30,176 bases of DNA, from positions 24,822-54,997 of the forward strand of contig JAVZBY010000007.1 in assembly GCA_038874655.1 (NCBI GenBank), given 5' to 3'. Under the pieces are notes generated by a model. That model saw only the letters and a program-made list of their open reading frames with translations, did not search any database and was not told where the DNA came from. Origin of the DNA: Candidatus Woesearchaeota archaeon. Lineage in GTDB: Archaea; Nanobdellota; Nanobdellia; Woesearchaeales; GW2011-AR15. Position 1 is the first letter of the stretch, and every line of letters begins with the position of its first letter. The position numbers and the translations under genes were made by a program. Positions 623 to 29,749 of the stretch are shown here, piece by piece.

Positions 623-1496
623 ATGAAAAGAAAAATAATGCAAATAGCAGATACTACTTTTGTAGTTTCATTGCCCTTAAAATGGGCAAGAGAGCATAAT
701 TTAAAAAAAGGAGATGAAGTTGAATTAGTTGCTGAAAAAAATCAATTATGTCTTAGGTTTGAAAATACAATAGATAAAAAAAGTTATTCTGTTGATGTTC
801 AAGAGTATAATAGAATGGCTGGAAGATATATTGTGTCATTATATAGACTAGGTTATGATGAGATTGAAGTAAAATTCTCAGATCCTAATTATGTTTCCAA
901 GATTCCAAAAGAATTATTTGAAAATACTATTGGCTTTGAAGTTATAAGCCAAAAACTAAATTCATGTATAATAAAAAATTTATCTGAATCTGATGATGAG
1001 GAATTAGAAAATATAATCAAAAGATTGTGGTTTTTGCTTAAAGAAATGTCAAAAGATTTAGTTGAGGCAATAAAAAATAAGGATAAAACTACTTTAAAAT
1101 CAATGAAAGAGAGAGAAAAAACAATAAATAAATTTTCAAATTATTGTATTAGATTATTATGAAAAATCTTTTGCTCTTTATTATTTTATTCGTTTTTTTG
1201 AGAATATTTCTGATGATATTAAAGAAATAGCTTTATTATGTTCAGAAAAAATGCCTAAGAAAGATATTGATTCAGATTTGAAAAAAATTATATCTTTAAT
1301 TAATAGTTTTTATGATTTATACTATTCCTTTGATTTGAAAATTGGAGAGTCCCTTGTTAATGACACGGAATTATTAATTAATGAATTAATTAATAAAAAA
1401 AATGAGCATGAATCCTATTTTAGTATGTATAGTTTAACAAAAAAGATTAAACAGCTTGTGTCTGTAGTTTTAGAGGTGAATATTGAAAATTCTTAG
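623..1496 (+). pseudogene. AbrB/SpoVT-PhoU phosphate-uptake-regulator family protein, split by a frameshift near 1150-1162
   Basis: N-terminus MKRKIMQIADTTFVVSLPLKWAREHNLKKGDEV is an AbrB/MazE domain, followed by LYRLGYDEIEV..IGFEVI and PhoU-like helices. The frame stops at TGA 1160-1162. The +1 frame is open across the junction (YEKSFALYYFIRFFENISDDIKEI...) and runs into ORF 1251-1496. Confidence 0.75.
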
Positions 1497-3273
1497 TATT
1501 TCCTTTTTCACTATGAATTTGTTTCAAGACATTTTCATATAGTGGTAAAGCAATATAATAATCACTATTTATTTCTATAGATCTAACTTTGTTTGTATAT
1601 TTTTCTATAACATATTCCCAGTTAAATTCTACATTTCTATCAATTAAATAATCAAATATAAATCTTAAACTTGAATATTCCTCATTATTTAAATTACCAA
1701 ATAATGGCACATTTTTTAAGAAATCTAAAAAGGTTGCTATATTATTTCCTTTTTTTGATTTCTCCCATTCACTATAAACTTGATTTAGTCTATGATATAA
1801 GTATGAAGTTACTGCAGCTTTCATTAGATTGATAATTATATCTTCTTTAACATGTGAAAAGGTTTCGGCTAAGGTTTTAATTTGATCAAAAATATTTAAA
1901 TAAATATTTTCAATTTCAACATAATTTATAACATCTTTTGAGTATATATTTAATATTAAATTGCTTTCAGATTGTATATTTGATAAAACTTCTTCTAGAG
2001 TATTATAAAAATTTTTTATAGCGATTTCTTTATTAAACTCAATTGAAAATTGATCTTTTAATTTTGTTATAATTTCTTTAAAGTAATCTAGGTTATTATT
2101 TGATTCAATCGAACCTAATTCTTCAATTATATATTCTGCTAATATTGTATATCCAAAAAGTCTTTGGTAATTATTTGATTTTTTATCGGTTTGTGGTTCT
2201 TTTAAAATATGGGCTATTTCTCTAATAGCTCTGAATAAACCATATTTTAGCATTTCTCTATTTGTATATTGTCTTTCTAAGTAAATATCAAATTTTTCAC
2301 ATATTTTTTGTCTATAATTATTATGATCATCTCCTTTTAAATAATCAAATAAATCTATTAATAATGCATTTCTTACTCTTTGAGTTTTCTCTTCTTTTGT
2401 CAGAGTCTCATCTGTGAAAAGTGTATTATGTATTCTAGTTATGAAGTTATCATCAATGGCTTTTCTTTCAAAATCTATTAATAATTGGACAAGGCTAAAT
2501 CCTCTTTTCATTTTATCTATGTTTAATCTATATCCTGGTTCAACTGCTAAATAAGTAATATTATCTAACCAAGAAACAGGCACACCTGTTCTATCAAAAT
2601 CATAAACTTTTATTGAATTTGCAATATCAGGAACAAGATTACTTTGATTAGATAAGTTTTTGAATTGATTTATTATATTTAATATACACTTATTTTCAAA
2701 ATAATCAACTATTGCATGCTTAGGCATACAATCATAAGCTCCTGAGTTAAAATCAAAACCATTAATTAAAAAATTAGCCATCTGTGATAACATATCATTA
2801 GAATATTTCAAGCCTAAATTATCATTAATAATTTTTAGAGATTCTTCTATCTTGTTTCTATAATAATCTGGATTTTGTTCCTGTCTTTGAATTTTACCAT
2901 CAAGAGCAGAAGAAACTTGTGCTAACCTCAAAGATTGTCCTAAAAAAAGAGCATATCTTAGATGATTTATTGCTCTAATTATTTCTTTTAATTGTGCCTC
3001 TCCTAAAGAACTATGTTGAATGTTTCTTTCTATTTCAGCAATTTCATGTAATACATTTTCTAAAGAATTGGATGTATCAAACCAATCTAAAACAAGTTTT
3101 TTATTAGTTTCATCACTATCAATTAATCTTGATGCTAAAATAAAAGGATAAAGTTGATTTAAAATTTCATAAGCTATTTTCTCTGCATTAAATCTATTAC
3201 CTTCCTCAGGTTTAAATGATTTAGTAAATGTTTTATCTTTTTGATTTTTATCTATTGTGGAATTATTAGGCAT
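1447..3273 (-). CDS. large hypothetical, probably alpha-helical soluble protein (~608 aa)
   Basis: Long open frame. The ORF track starts at TTG 3285; ATG 3273 is preferred because it lies 20 nt after a TTTATATACT box. No family motif recognised. Confidence 0.75.
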   Translation of the reverse strand: MPNNSTIDKNQKDKTFTKSFKPEEGNRFNAEKIAYEILNQLYPFILASRLIDSDETNKKLVLDWFDTSNSLENVLHEIAEIERNIQHSSLGEAQLKEIIRAINHLRYALFLGQSLRLAQVSSALDGKIQRQEQNPDYYRNKIEESLKIINDNLGLKYSNDMLSQMANFLINGFDFNSGAYDCMPKHAIVDYFENKCILNIINQFKNLSNQSNLVPDIANSIKVYDFDRTGVPVSWLDNITYLAVEPGYRLNIDKMKRGFSLVQLLIDFERKAIDDNFITRIHNTLFTDETLTKEEKTQRVRNALLIDLFDYLKGDDHNNYRQKICEKFDIYLERQYTNREMLKYGLFRAIREIAHILKEPQTDKKSNNYQRLFGYTILAEYIIEELGSIESNNNLDYFKEIITKLKDQFSIEFNKEIAIKNFYNTLEEVLSNIQSESNLILNIYSKDVINYVEIENIYLNIFDQIKTLAETFSHVKEDIIINLMKAAVTSYLYHRLNQVYSEWEKSKKGNNIATFLDFLKNVPLFGNLNNEEYSSLRFIFDYLIDRNVEFNWEYVIEKYTNKVRSIEINSDYYIALPLYENVLKQIHSEKGNTKNFQYSPLKLQTQAV

Positions 3274-3293
3274 GATAAGAATCAAGTAGTTTA

Positions 3294-3303: not shown

Positions 3304-3368
3304 TATTTCTAATTTTATTACTATATAATAGCAAAAAGTTTATATATGAGATGTGTTTATTAATTAAT

Positions 3369-3938
3369 ATGATTAATGTTCAAACTAATTTAATTAAAAT
3401 TTATATATATTTTAGGAATATATTAATTAATATTAATCCTAATAGCAAGTTTTTTGTTTTTATATTATTATCTTTATTTCTATTTTTCATTAATAAAATT
3501 TTATTTTTTATATTATTAATTATGCTATTTGATATAGCAAAAACTTTTTTAGAAAGAGCTTATGGTTTAAAAATACCTATATTTTTTATAGATTATGGAA
3601 TTATAATTATAAGTTTATTAATAAGCCCTTTTAGTGCTATGTTTTTAGTTTTTTATTTACTCTTTATAAGAATAATTACAGCAGATTTTAAGGTTAAGCA
3701 TTTACTAAAAATCCCTCTGTTAATTTTTATATTATTTATTGCTCCTTATTTTAGAAATTCAGGATTTGTTTTTGCATGTACTTCACTTTTTGCTCTAAGA
3801 TATATTATAGAGCATTCTTTATTTTTAATTTTTTCAAAAGATATAAAGATGGAGTTATTGTATGAAAGGATTATTAATACTATATTTGCTTTTTTATTTT
3901 TTGCTTTAATTTCTCCATTTATAAGATTCTTTTTCTAA
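3369..3938 (+). CDS. polytopic membrane protein (~6 TM), divergent relative of 13651-14199 and 14875-15468
   Basis: Highly hydrophobic ~190 aa with similar length and helix spacing to the two paralogs. Start uncertain (3351 or 3369). Confidence 0.7.
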   Translation: MINVQTNLIKIYIYFRNILININPNSKFFVFILLSLFLFFINKILFFILLIMLFDIAKTFLERAYGLKIPIFFIDYGIIIISLLISPFSAMFLVFYLLFIRIITADFKVKHLLKIPLLIFILFIAPYFRNSGFVFACTSLFALRYIIEHSLFLIFSKDIKMELLYERIINTIFAFLFFALISPFIRFFF

Positions 3939-3968: not shown

Positions 3969-4394
3969 TCACTTATTCCCAAAATAAAAAAACTTCTCAA
4001 CACTTACCTCGCTTGGAGCAACATTATTTCTATCAATTGGTTTTGTTAAATCTTTTTTTTGTTTTTCTTCACTAGTGTCATTATTAGTTAATGTTTTTTG
4101 GGCTTTTTTAACAATACCTAATTTAGCATCATTAAGTTCTTTTTCTAATTCTTCCTGTTTTTTCTTTGTTTCTTGTAATTCTTGAACAATTCTTTGTATT
4201 GCAATTGTCAATTTTCTAACTTCTTTTCTTAGCTCATCTAGATCATTTGAGTTCTCAACAGGAGATTCTTTTATATTTTCAGTTCCATATATTTTTTCAG
4301 CAGCAGAAATTGCACTATCAGTGTCATAGCCAATATTATGTTTTTTTAATTGGTTAGCCATCTCATTTAATTTTTGAATTTTTGTTACATCCAT
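3969..4394 (-). CDS. hypothetical coiled-coil protein
   Basis: SD AGGTGA lies 5 nt before ATG 4394; the GTG of the ORF track is part of that SD. Central heptads LDELRKEVRKLTIAIQRIVQELQETKKKQEELEKEL; C-terminus VSVEKFFYFGNK. Confidence 0.8.
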   Translation of the reverse strand: MDVTKIQKLNEMANQLKKHNIGYDTDSAISAAEKIYGTENIKESPVENSNDLDELRKEVRKLTIAIQRIVQELQETKKKQEELEKELNDAKLGIVKKAQKTLTNNDTSEEKQKKDLTKPIDRNNVAPSEVSVEKFFYFGNK

Positions 4395-4436
4395 TTTTTT
4401 CACCTATAAATTTTTATAAGTATTAATATAAAATTT

Positions 4437-5242: not shown

Positions 5243-7123
5243 ATTATTATTAGGCATGCTTTTAATAATATAAGTATTGAAAAGAATTTTGATTTATCTT
5301 TTATAAATAAGAAAAGAGCATTTTTTTTAACTTCTAATGGAAATTATTTTTATTACAATGATGATTCTAAATATAGGGGTCTTTTTTTTGTAGAAAAAAA
5401 AGATAAATTTGATTGGACTTTATTTAAGACAATTGATAAAATTGAGTTTTTTAATGAAGATAAAACATTAAACTTGAATAATTTAAATAACTCAAATGAA
5501 GAAGTTTTTTTAAACAGGTTTGATAAGTTTGAATGTCATTTAAATAGTAATATTTTCAGGTATTTTTTTGTAAATAATTCTTTTGTTTTGGAAACAGAAT
5601 TTAAAGGAAATTGTTTAATTACATTGGATATGAGAGAAATTTATGATTTTGATGATCAAGGAAGAATTTATAATATTTATGTTAAGAAAGGTTGTATTGT
5701 TATTGAATATAATAAATATTTGAATAATTTTTTAGACAATTTAAACTATAAAAGATATTTAGTTATAAAAACTAATTTAGATATAGATGAAAAAAATTCA
5801 TTTCAAATTCTTAATAAATGGAAAGAAGTTTTATATCAAGAAGATGAAAAAAGAAAGTCATATCCTTGGAAATTGTATATATATGAAGCTTTAAAATTTA
5901 AAGTTGATAAAAAAGCAAGGTTTGTTTTTAATTATTCAGAAAATTTGGATTTGGCAATAGAAAAGGTTAAATCAGATTTTAATAAACCCTATGAGGAAAA
6001 AACAAAATTTTTTAATCTTAAAAATGATAAAATCTCAATAGAAAAGAGTTTTGCATTTAATTGTGCTGTAAAAAGCTTTTTTGATTTATATGTAAAATTT
6101 GATGATAATGATGTTTTTGGTTTTTATGCTGGCTTACCTTGGTTTTTTCAAATATGGGCTAGAGATGAATTAATATCTTTAAAAGCATTAAAATCTATTT
6201 ATGAGTTCGAGAAAAATGAGATTTACATTGAATTAGGAAAAAAAATATTGTTAGACAGGATTAATAAAATAGATGAAACAGGAAAATTGCCAAACAGATT
6301 TCCTTTGTCTGAATTAGATAGTGCTGATGCCACAGGTTGGCTTTACAACAGAATTTTTGAGTTTTTAGAATATTTCTCTCAAAAAGAATTATCAAATATT
6401 AGAGAAAAATTGGAAAAAAGTGTATTGTCTTTTAAGAATAATATGCAAGATTATCTAATAAAAAATAAAGCTAATGAAACATGGATGGATACATCTTTTG
6501 AAAATGATACTAGGGAAGGATTTAGAATTGAAATTCAAGCTTTATGGCTATCTATGTTGAGATTAGCTAATTATATTGATAGATTGTTAATTAAAAAACA
6601 AACTTATTATGAATTTGAAGAAGTTGTTAGAGAAAAGGTTAAAAAAGATTTTTTTGAAAATGGAACTTTAAAAGATGGTAAGGATGATAATACTATTAGA
6701 CCAAACCTTTTTTTAGCGTGTTATGTTTATCCAGAGTTATTAACAAAAGAAGAATGGGAGTCTGTTTTTGATAAGGCAATTGAAAGATTATGGCTTGATT
6801 GGGGTGGTTTTTCTACAATTGATAAAAATCATAGGTTATTTTCACCTTATTATACTGGAGAAGATAATAAAAGCTATCACAGAGGAGATAGTTGGTTTTT
6901 TTTAAATAATATTGCAGCAATTTGTATGTGTAAAATTAACAAAGAGAAATATAAAAGTTATATAGATAAAATAATAGAATCAAGTACTTATGATATATTA
7001 TATGATGGTGCTATTGCAAGACCTAGTGAATTAAGCTCAGCTAATAATCAAGAAGCTAATGCATCATTATTTCAATTATGGAGTGCAGCAACATATATAG
7101 AACTATTAACGATTTATAAATGA
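5243..7123 (+). CDS. amylo-alpha-1,6-glucosidase / glycogen debranching enzyme (GDE_C-type), probable ATT start
   Basis: Motifs AGLPWFFQIWARDELIS, TWMDT, IEIQALW, RPNLFLA, YHRGDSW and QLWSAA. The frame is open 77 codons upstream of the ORF-track TTG 5474, back to ATT 5243, which is 5 nt after GGTGA. Confidence 0.85.
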   Translation: MIIRHAFNNISIEKNFDLSFINKKRAFFLTSNGNYFYYNDDSKYRGLFFVEKKDKFDWTLFKTIDKIEFFNEDKTLNLNNLNNSNEEVFLNRFDKFECHLNSNIFRYFFVNNSFVLETEFKGNCLITLDMREIYDFDDQGRIYNIYVKKGCIVIEYNKYLNNFLDNLNYKRYLVIKTNLDIDEKNSFQILNKWKEVLYQEDEKRKSYPWKLYIYEALKFKVDKKARFVFNYSENLDLAIEKVKSDFNKPYEEKTKFFNLKNDKISIEKSFAFNCAVKSFFDLYVKFDDNDVFGFYAGLPWFFQIWARDELISLKALKSIYEFEKNEIYIELGKKILLDRINKIDETGKLPNRFPLSELDSADATGWLYNRIFEFLEYFSQKELSNIREKLEKSVLSFKNNMQDYLIKNKANETWMDTSFENDTREGFRIEIQALWLSMLRLANYIDRLLIKKQTYYEFEEVVREKVKKDFFENGTLKDGKDDNTIRPNLFLACYVYPELLTKEEWESVFDKAIERLWLDWGGFSTIDKNHRLFSPYYTGEDNKSYHRGDSWFFLNNIAAICMCKINKEKYKSYIDKIIESSTYDILYDGAIARPSELSSANNQEANASLFQLWSAATYIELLTIYK

Positions 7124-7215: not shown

Positions 7216-7794
7216 CTATTTATCTAATCTTATTTTATCAAAGACACTATAACCTTTACCTTCTCTTAAAAAGAAATCTATATCAAAACTAAAGTTTGCA
7301 TTTAGTTTTATGTTTTCCATTTTTTTATTTGCATATATTAAACAAAGTTGAAATTCAGGACTATCCTTATTCAGCATATCATTATATTCATAGATTATTT
7401 TTACTGAGTTGTTTGATTTTTCTAAGTTAAGTGTATTTTTCTCTATATCTCCATAAGATAATTCAATTTCATTTTTATTTATGTTAAATTCTTTTTTCCT
7501 TGTAAAACTTTTTCCATCAATTTCAGATAAACCATCAATTTTTAATGCTTCATTTATTACATTTTTGAAATCATCTAAAATGTATAATTCTAATTTAAGT
7601 TGTATTCCTGTATCTTTAAAAACTAACATTAAATAGGGGTATTTTTTATTAAAATCCATTATTATTTTCTTTATTTTTTTTATGTCTTCTTTTGCTTCAG
7701 GTTTTCCTTCAGAGTATAAGTAATCAATATTTTTTAAGCTAGTAAAAATTAGTGAGATATCTTTTAAAAAGGTTGTTTCAATATCATTAGCCAT
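7216..7794 (-). CDS. hypothetical protein (192 aa)
   Basis: Open frame with ATG start; no motif recognised. Confidence 0.7.
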   Translation of the reverse strand: MANDIETTFLKDISLIFTSLKNIDYLYSEGKPEAKEDIKKIKKIIMDFNKKYPYLMLVFKDTGIQLKLELYILDDFKNVINEALKIDGLSEIDGKSFTRKKEFNINKNEIELSYGDIEKNTLNLEKSNNSVKIIYEYNDMLNKDSPEFQLCLIYANKKMENIKLNANFSFDIDFFLREGKGYSVFDKIRLDK

Positions 7795-9306: not shown

Positions 9307-11346
9307 TTGGTTGATTGCATAATAAAAAATGTAAGAAAAAGAGATAATTCTATTGATGTTTTTAAGATTTCAAAAATTGAAAATGCAGTTGAAAAAGCAA
9401 TGTTAGCAGTTCATATACAAAATGAAGAACTACCAAAAATAATTGCTTTAAAGGTTGTTGATGAATTAAATAAAAAAGAAAAAGATTATATACCTCATGT
9501 TGAAGAGATACAAGACATTATTGAAAAAACATTGATTAATGAAGGTCATGCTGAAATTGCAAAAGCATATATACTTTATAGGCAAAAAAGAGCAGAATTA
9601 AGAAAATTAAAACAAGATCTTTTAGGAAGATTTGATGATTCTAAATTAAGTATTAATGGTTTATTGGTTGCAAAATCAAGATATTTACTTGCAGATAATA
9701 ATGGAAATGTATTAGAGAGTCCAAAAGAAATGTTTAAAAGAGTAGCTAAAGCAGTTGCAAATGCTGAAAAACTTTATAAAAAACCAGAAGAAGAAAGAAA
9801 AAAATTAGAAGAGGAATTTTATGAGATAATGCATTCATTAGAATTTGTGCCAAGTGGTAGAATTTTGGCAAACGCAGGAAGAAAAAAAGCTATGCTATAT
9901 AGTAGTTTTGTTATTCCAATAGAAGATAATATAAAAGGTGTTTTTAGAGCACTTTATGAAAAAGCATTGATTCAAAGATTAGGTGGCGGAACAGGATTTT
10001 CATTTTCAAGATTAAGGCAAAAAGGCAAAAAATTAAACACAACCTCTGGATATGCTTCTGGGCCAGTTGCTTTTATAAAGTTGTTTGACCATGCCTCTGA
10101 TTTAACTGTTCATGTGGGAAATAGAAAACCAGCAAACATGGGATCTTTAAGTGTTGAGCATCCTGATATTATTGAATTTATAACAATGAAAGATAGAAGA
10201 GAAATTAAAAACTTCAATATTAGTGTTGAGATCACAGATTCTTTTATGAATGCAGTTAAAACTAATGAAAAGTATGCATTAAAAGATCCTAGTACTGGTG
10301 AGATTATTGATTATGTTGATGCAAATAATATTTTTCATTTAATTATAACAATGGCATGGAAAACAGGAGACCCTGGTGTTTTATTTATTGATAAAATTAA
10401 TGACTTAAATCCATTTCCTAAAATTGCCAGGATAGAAACAACAGATCCTTGCGGTGATCAATTATTATTGCCTTATGAAGGTGGAATTTTAGGTGCAATA
10501 AATCTTTCTAAATTTGTTAAATATGAGAAAATATCTTGGAAGAGATTAGAAGAAGTTGTTAAACTGAGTGTTAGATTTTTAGATAATGCAATAGACATAA
10601 GTAATTTTCCAATAAAAAAATTAGAAGAAATGGCGAAAGGAACAAGAAAAATAGGTTTAGGTGTAATGGGTTTTGCAGATATGCTTTATAAATTGAGAAT
10701 TCCTTATAATTCTGAGAAAGCAGTTGAAACAGCAGAAAAAATAATGAAATTCATTTATAATATTGCTTATGATACTTCAGAAGAATTATCTAATGAAAAA
10801 GGTGTTTTTCCATATTGGAGTCAAAGTATATATAAAGGAAAAAGAAAATTAAGAAATAGTTCTTTATTGGCAATTTCTCCAACTGGCTCTAGAAGCATAT
10901 TAGCAGATACTAGTCCTGGAATTGAGCCAAATTTTGCATTAGGTTATACTAGAAAAATTTTAGGTAGTATGGATATATTACAAATTAACAAAGTTTTAGA
11001 ACAAGAGCTAAAGGATAGAAATTTGTATAATGAGGAACTATTAAAAGAGATAATTTCAAAAGGTTCATTAAGAAATATTAATTTACCCAATATTCAAATT
11101 CCTGATGATTTAAAAAATGTTTTTATTACTGCTTATGAAGTAGAGCCTGAGTGGCATATTAAAATACAAGCAGCTTTTCAAAAATATATTGATAATGCAA
11201 TATCTAAAACAATAAATTTTGAAAAAAATGCAACCATAGAAGATATAAAAAAAGCATTTTTATTAGCATATGATCTAGGCTGTAAAGGAATTACTGTTTA
11301 TAGACAAGGTAGTTTAAATGAAGAGGTGTTTAGCATTGCCAAGTAA
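9307..11346 (+). CDS. nrdJ: ATP-cone class II (adenosylcobalamin-dependent) ribonucleotide-reductase-like protein with non-canonical active site
   Basis: SD GGGGTGA plus TTG start. ATP cone (VRKRD...VEEIQDIIEKTL...AKAYILYR). NrdJ motifs GGGTGFSFSRLR, SGPVAF, HPDIIEFI, NFNISV, GDPGVLFID, RKIGLGVMGFAD, ISPTG..GIEP, HIKIQAAFQKYIDNAISKTIN and KGITVYR. Catalytic residues are altered (see findings). Confidence 0.9.
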   Translation: MVDCIIKNVRKRDNSIDVFKISKIENAVEKAMLAVHIQNEELPKIIALKVVDELNKKEKDYIPHVEEIQDIIEKTLINEGHAEIAKAYILYRQKRAELRKLKQDLLGRFDDSKLSINGLLVAKSRYLLADNNGNVLESPKEMFKRVAKAVANAEKLYKKPEEERKKLEEEFYEIMHSLEFVPSGRILANAGRKKAMLYSSFVIPIEDNIKGVFRALYEKALIQRLGGGTGFSFSRLRQKGKKLNTTSGYASGPVAFIKLFDHASDLTVHVGNRKPANMGSLSVEHPDIIEFITMKDRREIKNFNISVEITDSFMNAVKTNEKYALKDPSTGEIIDYVDANNIFHLIITMAWKTGDPGVLFIDKINDLNPFPKIARIETTDPCGDQLLLPYEGGILGAINLSKFVKYEKISWKRLEEVVKLSVRFLDNAIDISNFPIKKLEEMAKGTRKIGLGVMGFADMLYKLRIPYNSEKAVETAEKIMKFIYNIAYDTSEELSNEKGVFPYWSQSIYKGKRKLRNSSLLAISPTGSRSILADTSPGIEPNFALGYTRKILGSMDILQINKVLEQELKDRNLYNEELLKEIISKGSLRNINLPNIQIPDDLKNVFITAYEVEPEWHIKIQAAFQKYIDNAISKTINFEKNATIEDIKKAFLLAYDLGCKGITVYRQGSLNEEVFSIAK

Positions 11347-11917
11347 ATTTAAAATCTATACTAAGGTTGGGGATTTTGGAGAAACAAATTTGTGTGATGG
11401 TTCTAAAACTTCAAAAGATTCATTTAGAGTTGAAGCTTATGGTTCTGTTGATGAGTTAAACTCACTATTAGGTTTATGTATAGTTAAATGTCCATATGAA
11501 GATGTTAAAGAACATTTAAAAGATATACAAATGGATTTATTTGCTATAGGAAGTAATCTAGCTTATCCTTCTGATTTAAGTCAAGCAAGTATAAAAGGGC
11601 CAAATATAGCAGAAAAAATTCCAAGAATAAATGATGAATTAATTGAAAAATTAGAAAAATTAATAGATAAATATGATGAAGAATTGCCAGTTTTAAAACA
11701 TTTTATTTTAGCAGGAGGTAATGAAATTTCAGCGTTATTACATTTTGCAAGAACTGTTTGCAGAAGAGCTGAAAGAAGGGTAGTAAGTTTAAAAAATCAT
11801 GAAGAGGTTAATAAAAACATAATTAAATATATGAATAGATTATCTGATTATTTATTTACTGCTGCAAGATTAGTTAGTCATAGAGATAGAAAAAAGGATA
11901 TTGAATGGATTCCCTAA
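11336..11917 (+). CDS. pduO: ATP:cob(I)alamin adenosyltransferase, PduO type
   Basis: KIYTKVGDFGET, RVEAYGSVDELNS, LHFARTVCRRAER, YMNRLSDYLF. Likely TTG 11336 after SD GAGGTG (11323-11328) inside the nrdJ 3' end; alternative ATG 11318. Confidence 0.93.
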   Translation: MPSKFKIYTKVGDFGETNLCDGSKTSKDSFRVEAYGSVDELNSLLGLCIVKCPYEDVKEHLKDIQMDLFAIGSNLAYPSDLSQASIKGPNIAEKIPRINDELIEKLEKLIDKYDEELPVLKHFILAGGNEISALLHFARTVCRRAERRVVSLKNHEEVNKNIIKYMNRLSDYLFTAARLVSHRDRKKDIEWIP

Positions 11918-11985: not shown

Positions 11986-12690
11986 ATGGAAATAAAAAAA
12001 ATTAATGTGTTGGACAAGGGTTTTGTTGAATTGCTAGATACAATGCCACAAGATAAAATGGATATGGCAGTTGTTTCTGCTGCAAGAGTTTCTTATTTAA
12101 CTGATTCAAAAGGTGAAGAAAAAGATAAAGCATTAATTGATTTTTTGATGAAACATGGGCATACAAGTCCTTTTGAAATGGCTGAATTTAAATTTAGGGT
12201 TAAAGCTCCTGTTGTTGTATGGTGGCAATGGGTCAGACATAGAATGGCAGAGTATAATGCACAATCAGGAAGATATGTAAAGTATGATGAAACAGAGTAT
12301 TATTTACCAGATAAATTAAGGCAGCCTGCAAAACATAACAGGCAAGCCTCAGATGAAGATAAATTTATTGAAGGTCAAGAGCATTTAATAAAAGAAATGG
12401 AAGAACATTACAAGAAAGGAATTTCACTATATAATAAGCTTTTAGAAAAAGGTGTTGCAAGAGAAGAAGCACGCTTAGTTTTACCTGGTTTTGCTATGTA
12501 TCATACTTTTATTGTTAAAATGAATTGTCATTCTTTAATGAACTTTATAAACAAAAGAAACCATAGAGATGCTCAATGGGAAATAAGACAATATGCAAAA
12601 GTTATAGAAGACTTTTTTAAAGAGAAAATGCCATGGAGCTATGAAGCATATAAAAAATGGTATCCTGGCGTTGATAGGAATTTAGAATAA
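11986..12690 (+). CDS. thyX: flavin-dependent thymidylate synthase
   Basis: RHR-x7-S-x-R motif (RHRMAEYNAQSGRY), plus AARVSY, GHTSPFE, REEARLVLP and AQWEIRQYA. SD GGTGA 4 nt before ATG. Confidence 0.95.
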   Translation: MEIKKINVLDKGFVELLDTMPQDKMDMAVVSAARVSYLTDSKGEEKDKALIDFLMKHGHTSPFEMAEFKFRVKAPVVVWWQWVRHRMAEYNAQSGRYVKYDETEYYLPDKLRQPAKHNRQASDEDKFIEGQEHLIKEMEEHYKKGISLYNKLLEKGVAREEARLVLPGFAMYHTFIVKMNCHSLMNFINKRNHRDAQWEIRQYAKVIEDFFKEKMPWSYEAYKKWYPGVDRNLE

Positions 12691-13650: not shown

Positions 13651-14199
13651 GTGAATAAACTAGAAAATTTTAAAATTTTCCTAGAAAAAAATAAAATTTT
13701 TCTCATATTTGCATTATTACTAATAATAATATTCAATAAATATTTAGCCCTTGTTTTCACATTTATTATATTAGGTTTTATTAGTTTGTATAGTATAAAA
13801 GTTAGTAGAATTGTGCCTCATATATCTGTTGAAACTGTTGGAGCATCTTCAATATTAATTTCCTATGTATGGGGATGGAAGTTTGGATTAGCTTTTGCGT
13901 TAATTATTGGTTTTTATGGTTATGCTAGAGAAGGTTTAATCAAATTAAAATCTATAGTAAATGTTTTATTAATGGGTGTTGTAGCAGTTGTAGCATCTAT
14001 CTTTTATAGTTTACATTATAGCTTTTTTGTTTCATATATGCTTAGTTTTATTGTTAGAATGGTTTTAAATGCTATTATTTTTCCTATGATTGAATCAGAT
14101 ATGTTTGAAAATATGATTCATGGGTTTGGAGATCCTTTGTTTAATATGTTTATAACTTTTCATTTTATAAATCTTTACTATATGAGATGGAATTTATAA
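13651..14199 (+). CDS. polytopic membrane protein, ECF S-component-like
   Basis: About 6 hydrophobic segments. RIVPHISVET...SYVWGWKFG aligns with RFVPHITLET...AYLYGPAAG of 14875-15468. The family assignment is inference. Confidence 0.7.
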   Translation: MNKLENFKIFLEKNKIFLIFALLLIIIFNKYLALVFTFIILGFISLYSIKVSRIVPHISVETVGASSILISYVWGWKFGLAFALIIGFYGYAREGLIKLKSIVNVLLMGVVAVVASIFYSLHYSFFVSYMLSFIVRMVLNAIIFPMIESDMFENMIHGFGDPLFNMFITFHFINLYYMRWNL

Positions 14200-14874: not shown

Positions 14875-15468
14875 TTGATAAACAAAGAAAAACAAAAATT
14901 AAAAGAGAAATACACGCAATTAGCAAAAAAGTATTTAGATACAAAAAAGATTCTTGTTATTTTTATTGCGCTTATATTGATATTAATGTTTTCTAAGGCA
15001 TTTAAAGGTATTTTACTTATAATTTTATTTATACCCTTAGTGCATTATTCTGTGAGAATTACAAGATTTGTGCCGCATATAACATTAGAAACTTATACAG
15101 GAAGTGCAATTTTAATGGCTTATTTATATGGACCTGCTGCAGGTGCTCTAAGTGCTTTGGTTTTAGGAATTTATGGTTATTTTTCTAATGGAGTAACAAA
15201 ATTTTTAGCTTTATTGAATGTATTTGTAGCAACTTTAACTGGATTTGTTTTTGGTTTTTTAGTTCAGCATAAGTTATTAAATTTAGGGTTTTCCTCAACA
15301 TTTTTTGTAGCAATACTCTTTAATAATATTGTTTCATATTTTGTTTTTTTGGTTTTTGATCCAGACCAAATACAAAATGTAATTTACAGAATTACTCATG
15401 TAATATGGAATGGCTTTATATCAATCCTATTTTTTACTTTATTATATAACCTGTATAATTTATTTTAA
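14875..15468 (+). CDS. polytopic membrane protein, ECF S-component-like (paralog of 13651-14199)
   Basis: Shares YS....R.VPHI..ET and Y..G...G motifs with 13651-14199; ~6 TM; TTG start. Confidence 0.7.
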   Translation: MINKEKQKLKEKYTQLAKKYLDTKKILVIFIALILILMFSKAFKGILLIILFIPLVHYSVRITRFVPHITLETYTGSAILMAYLYGPAAGALSALVLGIYGYFSNGVTKFLALLNVFVATLTGFVFGFLVQHKLLNLGFSSTFFVAILFNNIVSYFVFLVFDPDQIQNVIYRITHVIWNGFISILFFTLLYNLYNLF

Positions 15469-21613: not shown

Positions 21614-22915
21614 TTAATATTCTAAATCTTTATATAATGGAAACTCTTTTATAAATTCTAGGACTTCTTCTTTTACTTTTTCCTTTATTTCTTTATTATC
21701 TGGATTGCTTAAAACTTTGTAATACCATTCTGCTATTTGTTTCATTTCTGATTCTTTCATACCTCTTGATGTTATTGCTGGTGTGCCAATTCTTAAACCA
21801 CATGGATCAAAAGGAGTTCCTCTATCTCCAGGAATCATGTTTTTGTTTGTATAAATATGGACTTCATCTAAAACAGAAACTGCTTTTTTGCCTCTAATTC
21901 CAAAGCTTTTTTCAACATCCATTAAAATTAAATGATTATCTGTGCCTCCAGACACTAAATAAACACCATAATCTAATAATGAATCTGCCAATACTTTTGC
22001 ATTTTTTACTATTTGTTCTGCATACTTTTTAAAATCAGGTTGTAATGCTTCTTTGAATGCAACTGCCTTTGCTGCTATAACATGATCTAAAGGACCTCCT
22101 TGCATCCCAGGAAAGACAGCACTATCTATTTTTTGTGCTAAATTTTTCTTTTTTTCTTGTAAAGTATTAGTAGTTCTATCTAATCTGTCTTCTATTTTTG
22201 ACATTATCATTGCTCCTCTTGGTCCTCTCAAGGTTTTATGTGTTGTTGTTGTCACAACATCAGCAATAGGAACAGGATTTTCATGAACACCTGTTGCACA
22301 TAAACCAGCAATATGAGCTATATCAGACATATGATAAGCATTTACTTCTTCTGCAATATCTTGAAATTCTTTAAAATCTAATTTTCTTGGATATGCTGAA
22401 AAACCTGACAATAAAATTTTTGGTTTTATTTTCAAAGCCATTTTTCTTACTTCGTCCATATCAATAAATCCTGTTTCTGGATCAACTCCATAATGATAAA
22501 ATTCATAAAATTTGCCAGAAAAATTTACACTACTGCCATGTGTTAAATGACCTCCTGCATTTAAATCCATTGCTAAAATTTTATCTTTTAATTCAGCTAA
22601 TGCAAAAAAAACTTCCATGTTTGCTTGACTACCTGCATGAGGTTGTACATTCACATGCTCAGCATTAAATAATTTTTTAGCTCTTTCAATTGCTAAATTT
22701 TCGCTTTGATCAATAAATTCATTGCCACCATAATATCTTTTTCCAGAATAACCTTCAGAGTATTTATTTGTTAATGGCGTGCCCATTGCTTCTAAAACAG
22801 CTTTTGAAACAAAATTTTCAGAAGCAATCATTTCAATTCCATTTCTTTGTCTGTTGGTTTCATTTATAATTACTTTGTAAATTTCTGGATCAACATTTTT
22901 TAAAGAATCTAGCAT
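21614..22915 (-). CDS. glyA: serine hydroxymethyltransferase
   Basis: IASENF, NKYSEGY..RYYGG, GGHLTHG, TTTTHKTLRGPRG (PLP Lys), FPGMQGGP and GLRIGTPAITSRG. SD AGGTGA. Confidence 0.97.
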   Translation of the reverse strand: MLDSLKNVDPEIYKVIINETNRQRNGIEMIASENFVSKAVLEAMGTPLTNKYSEGYSGKRYYGGNEFIDQSENLAIERAKKLFNAEHVNVQPHAGSQANMEVFFALAELKDKILAMDLNAGGHLTHGSSVNFSGKFYEFYHYGVDPETGFIDMDEVRKMALKIKPKILLSGFSAYPRKLDFKEFQDIAEEVNAYHMSDIAHIAGLCATGVHENPVPIADVVTTTTHKTLRGPRGAMIMSKIEDRLDRTTNTLQEKKKNLAQKIDSAVFPGMQGGPLDHVIAAKAVAFKEALQPDFKKYAEQIVKNAKVLADSLLDYGVYLVSGGTDNHLILMDVEKSFGIRGKKAVSVLDEVHIYTNKNMIPGDRGTPFDPCGLRIGTPAITSRGMKESEMKQIAEWYYKVLSNPDNKEIKEKVKEEVLEFIKEFPLYKDLEY

Positions 22916-28018: not shown

Positions 28019-29749
28019 TTAATGAAAATAACTATTCAACACATATTGATGTACCATTCTATGTGTGTTAAAGAAAGAAGCATTAAAAGCAATAGCATGT
28101 CTCATTATTTCTGTCCATTTGTCCCAGTCATTATAAAACATTGGAATTATGATTTCTCTTAATTTTAAGTACATTTCCTTTGCATCTTGGTTATCTGTTG
28201 CATAATCATCTTTTATATTGTTTTCATGCCATTTAGGGCCTATAGACCAGCCTGTTATGTTTTCTACATGGCCTTCAATCCACCAACCATCTAAAACAGA
28301 AAAACTAGGAATTCCATTATGTGCTGCTTTCATACCACTAGTTCCAGATGCTTCTAATGGTCTTCTTGGTGTATTTAGCCATAGATCAACTCCAGAAACT
28401 AGTAATTTTGCTAGTCTCATATCATAATCAACTAAATAAACAACTTTTATCTTATCTTTTAATCTTTCTATGATTTCAAATAATTTTCTTATTAGTTCTT
28501 TTCCTGCATTGTCTCTTGGATGTGCTTTTCCACCTATTATAACTTGAAATTTTCCAACATTATCATGAATATCAATTAATTCATTTAAATTTGAAAAGAA
28601 TAAATCTAATCTTTTATAGGGTGTGCTTCTTCTTGCAAAACCTATTGTAAAGGTATTATAATCTAAATCTGCATGTGTAATTGAATTGACATAATCAATT
28701 AATTTTTTTTTTGCTGATAAATGTGCTTCCCAAATCTCTTTTCTTGATATGCTTAAAGCATATCTTAAATTAAAAGGATCATAACGCCAAGCTGGAATAT
28801 GCTTATCAAATAACTCTTTAAATTCATCACATGTCCATACATATGAATTAACACCATTAGTTATTGAATCAATTGGATATCCTGGAAACATAGTTTTTGA
28901 AACTTCTCTGTGTCTTAGTGCAACACCATTTATGTATTCAGAATTATTCAATGCTAATAGGGTCATATTTAATTTATCATTATAAAAATACATATTAAGT
29001 ATTTGCTCATCCATAAAATCTTTACCTAAAATATGTAAAACATCATTTTTATCAAATTGATCATGTCCTGCTGGAACAGGTGTATGCGTTGTAAAAACAC
29101 ATTTCTTTTTGACTTCCATAAAATCATATTTTTTGAATATATCTGTTTCTTGTTTTTTTTCAGTTCTCTTTAATAATTCCAAAGTTAAAAAAGCAGAATG
29201 ACCTTCATTCATGTGATATTTTTTGATTTTTTTATATCCTAATGCTTCTAACATTCTAGTTCCTGCAATACCTAAGATAATTTCTTGTTTTATTCTGTAT
29301 CTAAGGTCTCCACCATATAAATGTGCTGTAATTTCTCTATCTTCTGGAGCATTTTCTTCTAAATTAGTATCTAAAAAATAAATCGGCACTTCAAACCCTT
29401 TTATGCCTACAACTTTATATTCCCAAGCAGCCACTTTTACTTCTCTACCCTCAATATTAACAGAAACTCTTTGAGGCATAAGTTTCATAAATTTTATAGG
29501 ATACCAATCTACTGGTTTTTCAATTTGATACCCATTTTGAATTTCTTGTTTAAAATAACCTTTATTACAAATTATAGAAATTGCAACAACAGGAACTATT
29601 AAATCTGCAAATGTTTTTATTGTATCTCCAGCTAAAATACCTAAACCACCTGAATAAGTAGGAATGTTTTCATCTATTCCTATTTCCATAGAAAAATATG
29701 CAATTGACCTTATATCTTTTTCATGCTGTTTTTCTAATAAGTGTTTCAT
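28019..29749 (-). CDS. glgP: alpha-glucan (glycogen/maltodextrin) phosphorylase, GT35
   Basis: AYFSMEIG, YSGGLGILAGD, HMNEGH, FTTHTPVPAGHD, ITNGV, GFARR..YKR and EASGTSGMKA (PLP Lys). SD GAGGT. Confidence 0.96.
   Translation of the reverse strand: MKHLLEKQHEKDIRSIAYFSMEIGIDENIPTYSGGLGILAGDTIKTFADLIVPVVAISIICNKGYFKQEIQNGYQIEKPVDWYPIKFMKLMPQRVSVNIEGREVKVAAWEYKVVGIKGFEVPIYFLDTNLEENAPEDREITAHLYGGDLRYRIKQEIILGIAGTRMLEALGYKKIKKYHMNEGHSAFLTLELLKRTEKKQETDIFKKYDFMEVKKKCVFTTHTPVPAGHDQFDKNDVLHILGKDFMDEQILNMYFYNDKLNMTLLALNNSEYINGVALRHREVSKTMFPGYPIDSITNGVNSYVWTCDEFKELFDKHIPAWRYDPFNLRYALSISRKEIWEAHLSAKKKLIDYVNSITHADLDYNTFTIGFARRSTPYKRLDLFFSNLNELIDIHDNVGKFQVIIGGKAHPRDNAGKELIRKLFEIIERLKDKIKVVYLVDYDMRLAKLLVSGVDLWLNTPRRPLEASGTSGMKAAHNGIPSFSVLDGWWIEGHVENITGWSIGPKWHENNIKDDYATDNQDAKEMYLKLREIIIPMFYNDWDKWTEIMRHAIAFNASFFNTHRMVHQYVLNSYFH

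Follow-up and report, generated by a model that had tools for sequence, protein, structure and literature searches.

A tail-less NrdJ homologue from Woesearchaeota that keeps the radical cysteine and lacks both reducing cysteines: a conserved clade and a candidate adenosylcobalamin-dependent radical enzyme

In the class I and class II ribonucleotide reductases (RNRs) that have been characterised, a pair of cysteines in the active site reduces the substrate and a C-terminal pair does the recycling, according to excerpts of Lundin et al. 2015 (PMC4390871). The motif NPCXE was present in 3175 of 3347 class II sequences, and the remainder is not discussed in the excerpted sections of that study (PMC9669993). 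In the accessible text of the PASV preprint, 286 of 29,401 RNRdb representatives lacking N437/C439/E441/C462 (E. coli numbering) were removed as bycatch, and in excerpts of Schell et al. (PMC8365446) organisms with several copies of the class II enzyme NrdJ were counted by phosphate motif only. Here, we analysed an nrdJ-like gene of a Candidatus Woesearchaeota archaeon (9307..11346, + strand; a single open reading frame (ORF) of 679 aa with a TTG start). It lies in a window of 30,176 nucleotides, by which we mean the whole stretch of DNA studied (assembly GCA_038874655.1, contig JAVZBY010000007.1, positions 24,822 to 54,997). Its product, called the variant below, has kept the radical cysteine and has lost both reducing cysteines, and it may still work as a radical enzyme.

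By sequence and by fold the variant belongs to the NrdJ family, which is marked by an RNR all-alpha domain and a ten-stranded barrel. Pfam assigns to it an ATP-cone (PF03477), the RNR all-alpha domain (PF00317, residues 113–194) and the RNR barrel (PF02867). The NCBIfam equivalog model NrdJ_Z (TIGR02504) gives 615 bits, which passes its cut-off of 399.95; the model for ribonucleoside triphosphate reductase (RTPR; TIGR02505) gives only 53 bits against a cut-off of 340. The closest sequence with a solved structure is T. maritima NrdJ (1xje/1xjk; phmmer, E = 1.8e-114). An AlphaFold2 model built on the alignment of the variant's clade (predicted local distance difference test, pLDDT, 88.7; predicted template modelling score, pTM, 0.88) is confident. 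Its top match in the PDB by Foldseek is the T. maritima NrdJ complex with dTTP, GDP and adenosylcobalamin (AdoCbl) (3o0o_A; template modelling score 0.84 on target, 37% identity).

The five catalytic positions read Ser, Asp, Cys, Asp and Gly in the variant, against Cys, Asn, Cys, Glu and Cys in T. maritima NrdJ. Ser200 (AGT, 9904..9906, +; in LYSSFVIP) occupies the beta-A reducing-cysteine site and aligns with the Cys of LSACFV. The three middle positions lie in the finger loop T-T-D-P-C-G-D (residues 378–384; 10438..10458, +), where the radical cysteine Cys382 (TGC, 10450–10452) is flanked by Asp380 (GAT, 10444–10446) and Asp384 (GAT, 10456–10458); in the phmmer alignment these three residues stand opposite N-P-C-G-E of the T. 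maritima enzyme. Gly393 (GGA, 10483..10485, +; in TTDPCGDQLLLPYEGGILGAINL) occupies the beta-F reducing-cysteine site and aligns with the Cys of YEAC. We take the beta-A site to be C225 of E. coli and C134 of T. maritima, and the beta-F site to be C462 and C333, respectively. The equivalence of the whole set with E. coli C225/N437/C439/E441/C462 follows the numbering in the accessible text of the PASV preprint and common usage. A first-pass annotation of the window had named these five residues, and the codons together with the T. maritima alignment show it to be exact to the base.

The variant has three cysteines in total (residues 4, 382 and 659); of these, C382 and C659 alone do not vary when 35 clade members are aligned. 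Because C659 sits in a GCKG motif that is common to canonical relatives, a substitute cysteine pair is absent. Other cysteines in the active site, which the first-pass annotation had named as a possible objection, are thus not available as conserved residues. The chain stops 13 residues past the last barrel strand of the model (E661-666) and is without the Cys-rich C-terminal tail, that is, without the cysteine pair or zinc-finger tail used for re-reduction by thioredoxin or glutaredoxin. It had also been claimed that the rest of the ORF is intact. This is right for the open frame, the fold and the domains, but the C-terminal Cys tail is gone and specificity loops 1 and 2 are relaxed. Because the N-x-C-x-E motif (D-P-C-G-D here), the beta-A/beta-F reducing pair (Ser200 and Gly393 here) and the C-terminal cysteines all fail, the variant should not be annotated as a ribonucleoside-di/triphosphate reductase. 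The radical cysteine itself remains: Cys382, the counterpart of the Cys in N-P-C-G-E, does not vary within the clade.

We scored the 120 best matches to the variant in a collection of 5.8 billion proteins, and the paralogue from the same genome, giving 121 sequences. D380-C382-D384, with one Glu at 384, was found in 43 of the 120, and the canonical set Cys-Asn-Cys-Glu-Cys in 73 of the 121; five matches had other non-canonical patterns. The sources of the matches were labelled Woesearchaeota, Nanoarchaeota or simply 'archaeon'. Because the pattern recurs to this extent in independent assemblies, chance or error is excluded as its origin. Asp380 is present in 43 of 43 clade members and Asp384 in 98%, and T378, D380, P381, C382, G383 and D384 are invariant in the 35 members aligned. 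The beta-A position is S, I, N or C within the clade, and the beta-F position is G, S, V, C or I. All 43 members lack the C-terminal tail, and some have as few as two cysteines. At least two cysteines were found in the last 40 residues of each of the 73 canonical sequences, many of which have six in a zinc-finger pattern.

The clade is also visible in genomes and at other clustering levels. A back-translated T-D-P-C-G-D pattern occurred in 15 of 401 sampled genomes of the same order versus 2 for a reversed control (the 401-genome tallies include one genome, G112, flagged as unpublished), and in 7 of the 8 genomes of the window's own family. Variant clusters at an identity of at least 63% number 26. 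Among 50%-identity representatives the clade was largely merged with canonical clusters, and only P0041 and the intermediate P0242 stood out.

A maximum-likelihood tree was calculated from 137 rows and 695 columns (LG+G4, quick search), leaving out sequences longer than 850 aa (inteins); some of its branches are long. All Asp380 sequences, 47 tips made up of 43 proteins and 4 locus copies, group together in a single clade with a support of 98 in the Shimodaira–Hasegawa-like approximate likelihood ratio test (SH-aLRT). The sister of this clade is a pair of canonical ATP-cone NrdJ sequences, P0029 and P0038 (support 91), and the window protein falls in a tight subclade with the pattern SDCDG (27 tips, support 100). 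Judged from these sequences, the variant is a monophyletic DPANN clade with Woesearchaeota and Nanoarchaeota labels. The search for DPCGD homologues and the question of monophyly, both raised in the first-pass annotation, are thereby answered: DPCGD/E homologues without the tail do form one clade.

The basal members of the clade keep one or both cysteines (CDCDS, CDCEI, CDCDV and CDCDC), and therefore the Asn-to-Asp change and the loss of the tail came first. The apparent order of changes is Asn-to-Asp, then tail loss, then Glu-to-Asp and then the loss of both cysteines. P0242, which stands outside the clade listing, has the Asn-to-Asp change only; none of its cysteines is lost, and it ends in a 2-Cys tail. 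This sequence may represent the first step, or it may be a sign that Asp is tolerated in an active RNR.

The catalytic codons were also compared with public sequencing runs, represented by contigs only. A Logan contig of run X1, which may be the source sample and hence not independent, covers 9786–11784 with 0 differences, and one of run X2 covers 9786–9983, likewise with 0 differences. Where the codons are covered, the consensus errors against which the first-pass annotation had warned are not seen in these contigs; X2 and a third run, X3, leave parts of the stretch uncovered. The public runs that hold 9307–11917 of the window (X1–X3) are all labelled as hot-springs metagenomes and come from two studies. 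X3 holds a close relative of the stretch, with C>T at 10371, T>A at 10374 and few differences overall.

The genome to which the window belongs (G000, with the window on its contig C7) is 97% complete, its 17 contigs adding up to 1.26 Mb. It has a second RNR gene, on contig C2 (L001, 1177–3159; 660 aa), and NrdD was not found in it. Whether another RNR exists had been a question of the earlier annotation, and this one is a complete canonical NrdJ. The two proteins belong to the same family, with 47% core identity, and both have apical loops of the type that binds ribonucleoside triphosphates (NTPs). Unlike the variant, the partner is complete at the five catalytic positions, its specificity loops are strongly conserved, and it ends in a Cys-rich tail resembling a zinc finger; an ATP-cone is absent from it. 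It belongs to a different NrdJ subclade, and its nearest named non-DPANN relatives are clostridial NrdJ/NrdZ proteins (Caloranaerobacter, Gottschalkia; 54–56% identity). It is possible that the partner was gained horizontally before the older ATP-cone copy lost its function.

We then compared the selective constraint on the two genes. In 11 genomes with both the variant and the canonical partner (55 pairs; residues 110 onward), the ratio of their core p-distances had a median of 1.07 and ranged from 0.83 to 1.56. The ratio of non-synonymous to synonymous substitution rates (dN/dS, Nei–Gojobori) was 0.079–0.093 for the variant and 0.116–0.137 for the partner in the same 3 genome pairs, with dS at 0.7–1.5; the farther of these pairs are therefore near saturation. 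By these sequence comparisons, the constraint on the variant is no weaker than that on the canonical reductase, which is presumably essential. Relaxed selection, an objection that the first-pass annotation had itself raised, is not seen, as the variant's dN/dS is no higher than that of the canonical copy. Its view that the pattern is coordinated and not random decay agrees with a clade that is monophyletic, slow-evolving and most conserved at the altered finger loop.

The constraint is unevenly distributed along the protein. Among 72 canonical cone-bearing NrdJ sequences, 247 columns are at least 90% conserved; the variant clade keeps 138 of them and the divergent canonical partner clade 164. 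Region identities were compared in clades of similar depth (core identity 0.71 for the tight variant clade vs 0.77 for the partner). The stretch from the finger loop to beta-F is the best conserved of the tight variant clade, with a mean pairwise identity of 0.87. The region from specificity loop 1 to loop 2 (residues 236–278; 10012..10140, +) is relaxed relative to canonical NrdJ: the identities of loops 1 and 2 are 0.63 and 0.76 in the variant, whereas they are 0.88 and 0.98 in the partner clade. The canonical-conserved residues P238, D241, V243, G248, S251, S255, K268, Q269, G270, R274 and G275 are no longer conserved in the clade, and R273, A276 and N277 are still invariant. As far as alignments can tell, selection acts on the radical tip but not on the reductant positions, and it has relaxed on the specificity apparatus. 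An invariant finger loop beside freely varying Cys sites would fit a radical tip that still works and can do without the residues for reduction.

The nucleotide pocket has a known type of apical phosphate-binding loop, P182-S-G-R185 (9850..9861, +), which is the NTP-type motif. According to excerpts of Schell et al. 2021 (PMC8365446), P-N-S-P marks reducers of ribonucleoside diphosphates (NDPs) and P-[ASG]-G-R marks NTP reducers, L. leichmannii having P-S-G-R. The motif P-[SGA]-G-R was found in 43 of 43 clade members. The canonical sequences closest to the clade (P0029 and P0038) have P-G-G-R, as does the partner in the genome of the window, and 68 of the 73 canonical top matches have P-N-S-P. 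The G-R pair is thus inherited and not new, which argues that a ribonucleoside triphosphate is the putative ligand still bound. We had considered R185 as a clade-specific gain, and this was ruled out, as G184-R185 is the known NTP motif and is common to the nearest canonical relatives.

Of R185 and R529, only R529 is clade-specific. It lies in the distal phosphate-binding loop P-T-G-S-R-S (residues 525–530; 10879..10896, +) and is Arg in 43 of 43 clade members, where all 73 canonical sequences have Ile or Leu. Together with R529, the residues E308, S280, D380 and D384 are invariant in the clade without a canonical counterpart.

The ATP-cone (residues 8–96; 9328..9594, +; PF03477, 8.9e-21) keeps the residues of the motifs KR(D)G...F and VE.QD.VE...AKAYILYR.KR. 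In the cone region K11, R12, F19, E66, Q69, D70, E73, A85, K86, I89, R92 and R99 are invariant in the 35 members, and the residue pattern equals that of the 72 canonical cone-bearing NrdJ sequences. From these residues, the domain would count as an ATP-cone of the usual kind.

Downstream of the variant lies a gene for a PduO-type ATP:cob(I)alamin adenosyltransferase (11318..11917, +; PF01923, 3.8e-59; TIGR00636), which overlaps the 3' end of the variant gene and is the sole PF01923 match in the genome. Directly after pduO comes thyX, a FAD-dependent thymidylate synthase gene (11986..12690, +; PF02511, TIGR02170) and the last gene of the cluster. When genome contigs were scanned with the alignment of the clade, 80 loci were obtained, and a D-P-C-G-D gene is present in 15 of them (L033–L047). 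In all 13 tight-clade loci (the window and L033–L044), pduO is directly downstream of the variant; it was not found in the available sequence of the three more distant loci, L045–L047. After pduO, thyX follows in 4 loci (the window, L033, L034 and L035) and thyA with folA in 7 (L036, L038–L041, L043 and L044), so that a thymidylate synthase follows in 11 of 11 loci with enough downstream sequence. Neighbour families were assigned by BLAST clustering, and Pfam confirmed ThyA and dihydrofolate reductase (DHFR) for L043. The thymidylate synthase next door ties the variant gene to deoxynucleotide supply. The variant gene is presumably transcribed together with pduO and the thymidylate synthase gene. 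The exchange of thyX for thyA and folA (DHFR) is a non-orthologous replacement at one operon position. The window also has a serine hydroxymethyltransferase gene at 21614–22915, whose product can supply methylene-tetrahydrofolate to ThyX.

No match to the B12-binding family PF02310 was found in the genome, and thus, among the AdoCbl users tested for, none but the two NrdJ homologues can be recognised. Three thioredoxin-family matches are present. An Rfam scan of the window gave 0 families, and no riboswitch was found upstream.

A canonical RNR accompanies the variant in every variant-bearing genome examined. A cone-less, Cys-tailed NrdJ with the motif 'ATNPCAEIW' lies directly upstream of the variant in five loci (L035, L039, L042, L043 and L044), of which L043 is the closed chromosome CP010425.1 of Archaeon GW2011_AR15; in L036 it lies 6.6 kb upstream. 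With whole-genome searches where the genes are not adjacent, this partner was found in 12 of 13 tight-clade genomes. In the thirteenth (L037/G128) it is present only as C-terminal fragments, two short ORFs at a contig start with a TAA inside the match. The variant copy of L037, 69% identical, sits with pduO on a 3214-base contig of a 3.1-Mb bin titled Heimdallarchaeota, and this copy is probably a binning contamination. In the wider-clade genomes G125, G129 and G130 other canonical RNRs are present. When metagenome contigs were searched with the canonical partner, nothing closer than 49% identity was found.

Taken together, these results lead us to propose, at about even chances, that the variant is a still-active AdoCbl/thiyl-radical enzyme which acts on an NTP under ATP/dATP control and either depends on an external electron donor or stops at dehydration. 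The intact fold, the radical tip, the NTP pocket, the cone, the purifying selection and the linkage to pduO and thymidylate synthase support this proposal. Other tail-less, non-canonical NrdJ-like lineages of the same order also keep the finger-loop Cys. In addition, class II enzymes exchange the 5'-hydrogens of AdoCbl through the radical Cys, for which the reducing pair is not needed.

The proposed mechanism may be described as follows. PduO would hand AdoCbl to the variant, and homolysis of the Co–C bond would generate a thiyl radical on Cys382, which would take the 3'-hydrogen from the bound ribonucleoside triphosphate. Asp384 would be the base at the 3'-OH, and Asp380, at the position that hydrogen-bonds the 2'-OH, would replace the beta-A Cys as the proton donor for the loss of the 2'-OH. 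Because the variant protein has no electrons of its own, either an outside donor or dehydration has to be assumed. In the first case the 3'-keto-2'-radical would be reduced to a deoxyribonucleoside triphosphate (dNTP) by a small molecule or by the tail of the partner acting in trans, and the donor would enter through the cavity opened by Ser200 and Gly393. In the second case hydrogen would return from Cys382, and the net dehydration would give a 3'-keto-2'-deoxy-NTP. The ATP/dATP ratio would switch the activity via the ATP-cone.

Several points weigh against this proposal. The variant is not needed as a reductase, since a canonical RNR was always present in the genomes examined. A 3'-keto-2'-deoxynucleotide is an unstable product, and no dedicated ketoreductase is conserved in the neighbourhood of the variant. 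pduO could serve the canonical NrdJ, which is directly upstream of the variant in 5 loci, and the relaxed specificity loops would also fit a protein without substrate turnover. Non-catalytic RNR homologues seem to exist, because P0340 appears to be without the radical Cys. In P0340 the phosphate loops are degenerate as well, and it is a candidate for a truly dead RNR homologue. As for the donor, the first-pass annotation had offered an external small reductant, with formate as its example. The option stands, but the example is weakened: the beta-A Cys that formate-type chemistry would involve is Ser here, and no NrdD and no endogenous formate source, neither pyruvate formate-lyase (PFL) nor formate–tetrahydrofolate ligase (FTHFS), was found in the 97% complete genome. 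Another small donor, also one from the environment, is conceivable.

The variant may instead be a non-catalytic partner of the canonical NrdJ, which we regard as a serious minority possibility. It would be either an ATP-cone regulatory subunit or a subunit that holds and loads AdoCbl supplied by PduO, and its pocket would bind NTP or AdoCbl only as a ligand. The constant presence of a canonical RNR, directly upstream in five loci, is what such a partnership predicts, and the cone is kept in the variant and absent from the partner. Partner-type full-length clusters (P0121–P0146, 67–87% identity, all CNCEC) number 26, like those of the variant, and beyond them the matches fall off steeply. For several clusters of the two types the longest contigs are equal in length, which suggests, without proving, that they come from the same contigs. 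The specificity loops, the reductant cysteines and the tail have all been relaxed or lost in the variant, in line with such a role. The natural single chains P0238 and P0239, with two different NrdJ cores and one tail, are a precedent for paralogous cores working as a pair. However, the radical Cys and its flanking Asp residues are invariant and form the most conserved stretch, and a mere scaffold would not need them. A canonical heterodimer needs loop 1 of the variant, yet loop 1 is the least conserved region (0.63). The partner looks self-sufficient, with its five catalytic residues, conserved loops and tail, and where the two genes are apart, as in the genome of the window, pduO stays with the variant. 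In the wider clade, the partner in G125 has a cone of its own (944 aa), and by this case the idea that the variant lends its ATP-cone to a cone-less partner was ruled out as a general rule.

P0238 (1600 aa) and P0239 (1351 aa) contain two complete RNR cores in tandem, both with Cys-Asn-Cys-Glu-Cys. The apical and specificity loops differ between the halves, and a single zinc-finger-like Cys tail stands at the end, so that these proteins look like covalent 'heterodimers' of NrdJ cores. Further tail-less NrdJ-like lineages exist in the same order (L008/L048, L009/L051, L030, L031, L070, L075, L026 and L020), with the active-site patterns ASCEA, TDCSV, SSCEG, CDCEA, and CNCEC without a tail. Several of them adjoin a canonical NrdJ that has the tail, and on contig G020:C60 three RNR genes follow one another. 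Pairs of a degenerate and a canonical NrdJ seem to have arisen repeatedly.

A further explanation, which we consider rather improbable, is that the variant does radical chemistry outside dNTP supply, either on another substrate, such as a phosphorylated ribose derivative instead of a standard NTP, or with another type of reaction, such as epimerisation or elimination, and is kept in the operon for cofactor sharing only. The invariant R529, E308, S280, D380 and D384 without canonical counterparts and the loss of base-reading residues in loop 2 would be expected of such an enzyme, and two carboxylates by the cis-diol resemble the metal-assisted diol binding of AdoCbl diol dehydratase. However, all genes of the operon (nrdJ, pduO and thymidylate synthase, with folA in relatives) belong to deoxynucleotide metabolism, and this context persists where thyX is exchanged for thyA and folA. 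Furthermore, the ATP-cone, a dATP/ATP sensor, is kept, and the apical loop is still of the NTP type seen in P0029 and P0038, the closest canonical sequences. Readings outside those discussed here have, in our judgement, very little probability. It is hardly credible that the pattern stems from an assembly or consensus error in the catalytic codons, or that the gene is a pseudogene which has drifted since a second NrdJ was acquired: the same genome does have a redundant canonical NrdJ, and such sequences are routinely discarded as non-functional by curation pipelines (PASV preprint, accessible text), but 43 independent database clusters and 15 further genome loci have these residues too, the 679-aa frame is open with a confident model (pLDDT 88.7), the dN/dS of 0.08–0.09 is lower than that of the canonical partner, and the covered codons show zero differences in Logan contigs of two runs.

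We return to the proposal of an active radical enzyme and its significance. Tentatively, the variant could be a natural AdoCbl/thiyl-radical enzyme without a protein-borne reductant, the first with an RNR fold, acting as a directly fed NTP reductase or a ribonucleotide 2'-dehydratase, cone-gated, with Asp380 and Asp384 replacing the Cys/Asn/Glu proton machinery. The literature searches found no description of a Cys-pair-less NrdJ, of a DPANN NrdJ variant or of a relevant RNR pseudoenzyme, although such sequences may be listed in the supplementary tables of Burnim et al. and of Schell et al.; in the literature searched, the variant is therefore not an already characterised subclass, an objection which the first-pass annotation had anticipated. 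A class of sequences usually filtered as non-functional proves to be a conserved family under strong selection. If it is catalytic, the two halves of RNR chemistry, radical and reductive, are uncoupled in a natural enzyme, which would bear on the evolution of ribonucleotide reduction and on other uses of the RNR scaffold; confirmed radical chemistry would move it towards a new enzyme class on that scaffold.

If the external donor is real, the variant would be a present-day equivalent of the ancestral RNR, class II-like and formate-using, that is discussed in excerpts of Lundin et al. 2015 (PMC4390871). If it is a 2'-dehydratase, it would carry out diol-dehydratase chemistry on a nucleotide. 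As a silent partner, it would be a pseudo-subunit for regulation or cofactor handling, the first such case in a class II RNR. Whichever holds, the annotation and counting of nrdJ copies in DPANN genomes must change. The compact, few-cysteine protein is also a handle for studying AdoCbl-driven thiyl-radical formation.

Elsewhere in the window there is a GDE_C glycogen-debranching-type glucosidase gene (5474–7123, +) and a carbohydrate phosphorylase gene (28019–29749, −). Six ORFs of 144–612 aa have no Pfam family at E <= 1e-5, namely 1447–3285 (−), 3351–3938 (+), 3969–4403 (−), 7216–7794 (−), 13651–14199 (+) and 14875–15468 (+). The one of 612 aa is the largest unexplained gene of the window.

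Finally, we compared the variant with known systems. In E. coli NrdA, mutants of C225/C462 and N437/E441 reportedly carry out the first half-reaction, in which the 3'-hydrogen is taken and water is lost, and then give 3'-keto-2'-deoxynucleotide, base and furanone instead of a dNDP. The dehydration proposed above as one outcome for the variant would be the same chemistry. The residue states of such mutants (C225S, C462S/A, N437D and E441Q/D) resemble those of the variant. However, the mutants are self-inactivating laboratory proteins, and the variant is a selected natural clade with R529, S397A and tail loss.

T. maritima NrdJ (1xje, 3o0o) has the same barrel, all-alpha domain and finger loop with the radical Cys. 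Unlike the variant, it has a P-N-S-P (NDP) loop and conserved loops 1 and 2, and the crystallised chain is without an ATP-cone. The RTPR of L. leichmannii shares the P-S-G-R apical loop with the variant, according to excerpts of Schell et al. 2021 (PMC8365446). The NTP-reducing class II RNRs (L. leichmannii RTPR and NrdJm of a Thermus virus) differ in that they keep the active-site and C-terminal cysteine pairs; the studied ones are monomeric, and they are distant in sequence. The formate-dependent class III enzyme NrdD takes electrons from a small molecule and reduces NTPs (excerpts of Lundin et al. 2015, PMC4390871), and is a functional analogy for the external-reductant reading. Unlike the variant, it is a glycyl-radical enzyme and has kept the beta-A Cys, which works with a Met of the finger loop (PMC9669993, section 2.5).

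The likeness to AdoCbl diol dehydratase is mechanistic only, in the radical dehydration of a 1,2-diol; by fold, the variant is an RNR. Yeast Rnr4 and the R1 homologues of herpesviruses are paralogues without catalytic or cofactor residues that have been retained for partner or other functions, and they are precedents for the reading of the variant as a non-catalytic partner. They have lost radical or metal residues, whereas in the variant the radical Cys loop is the best conserved part.

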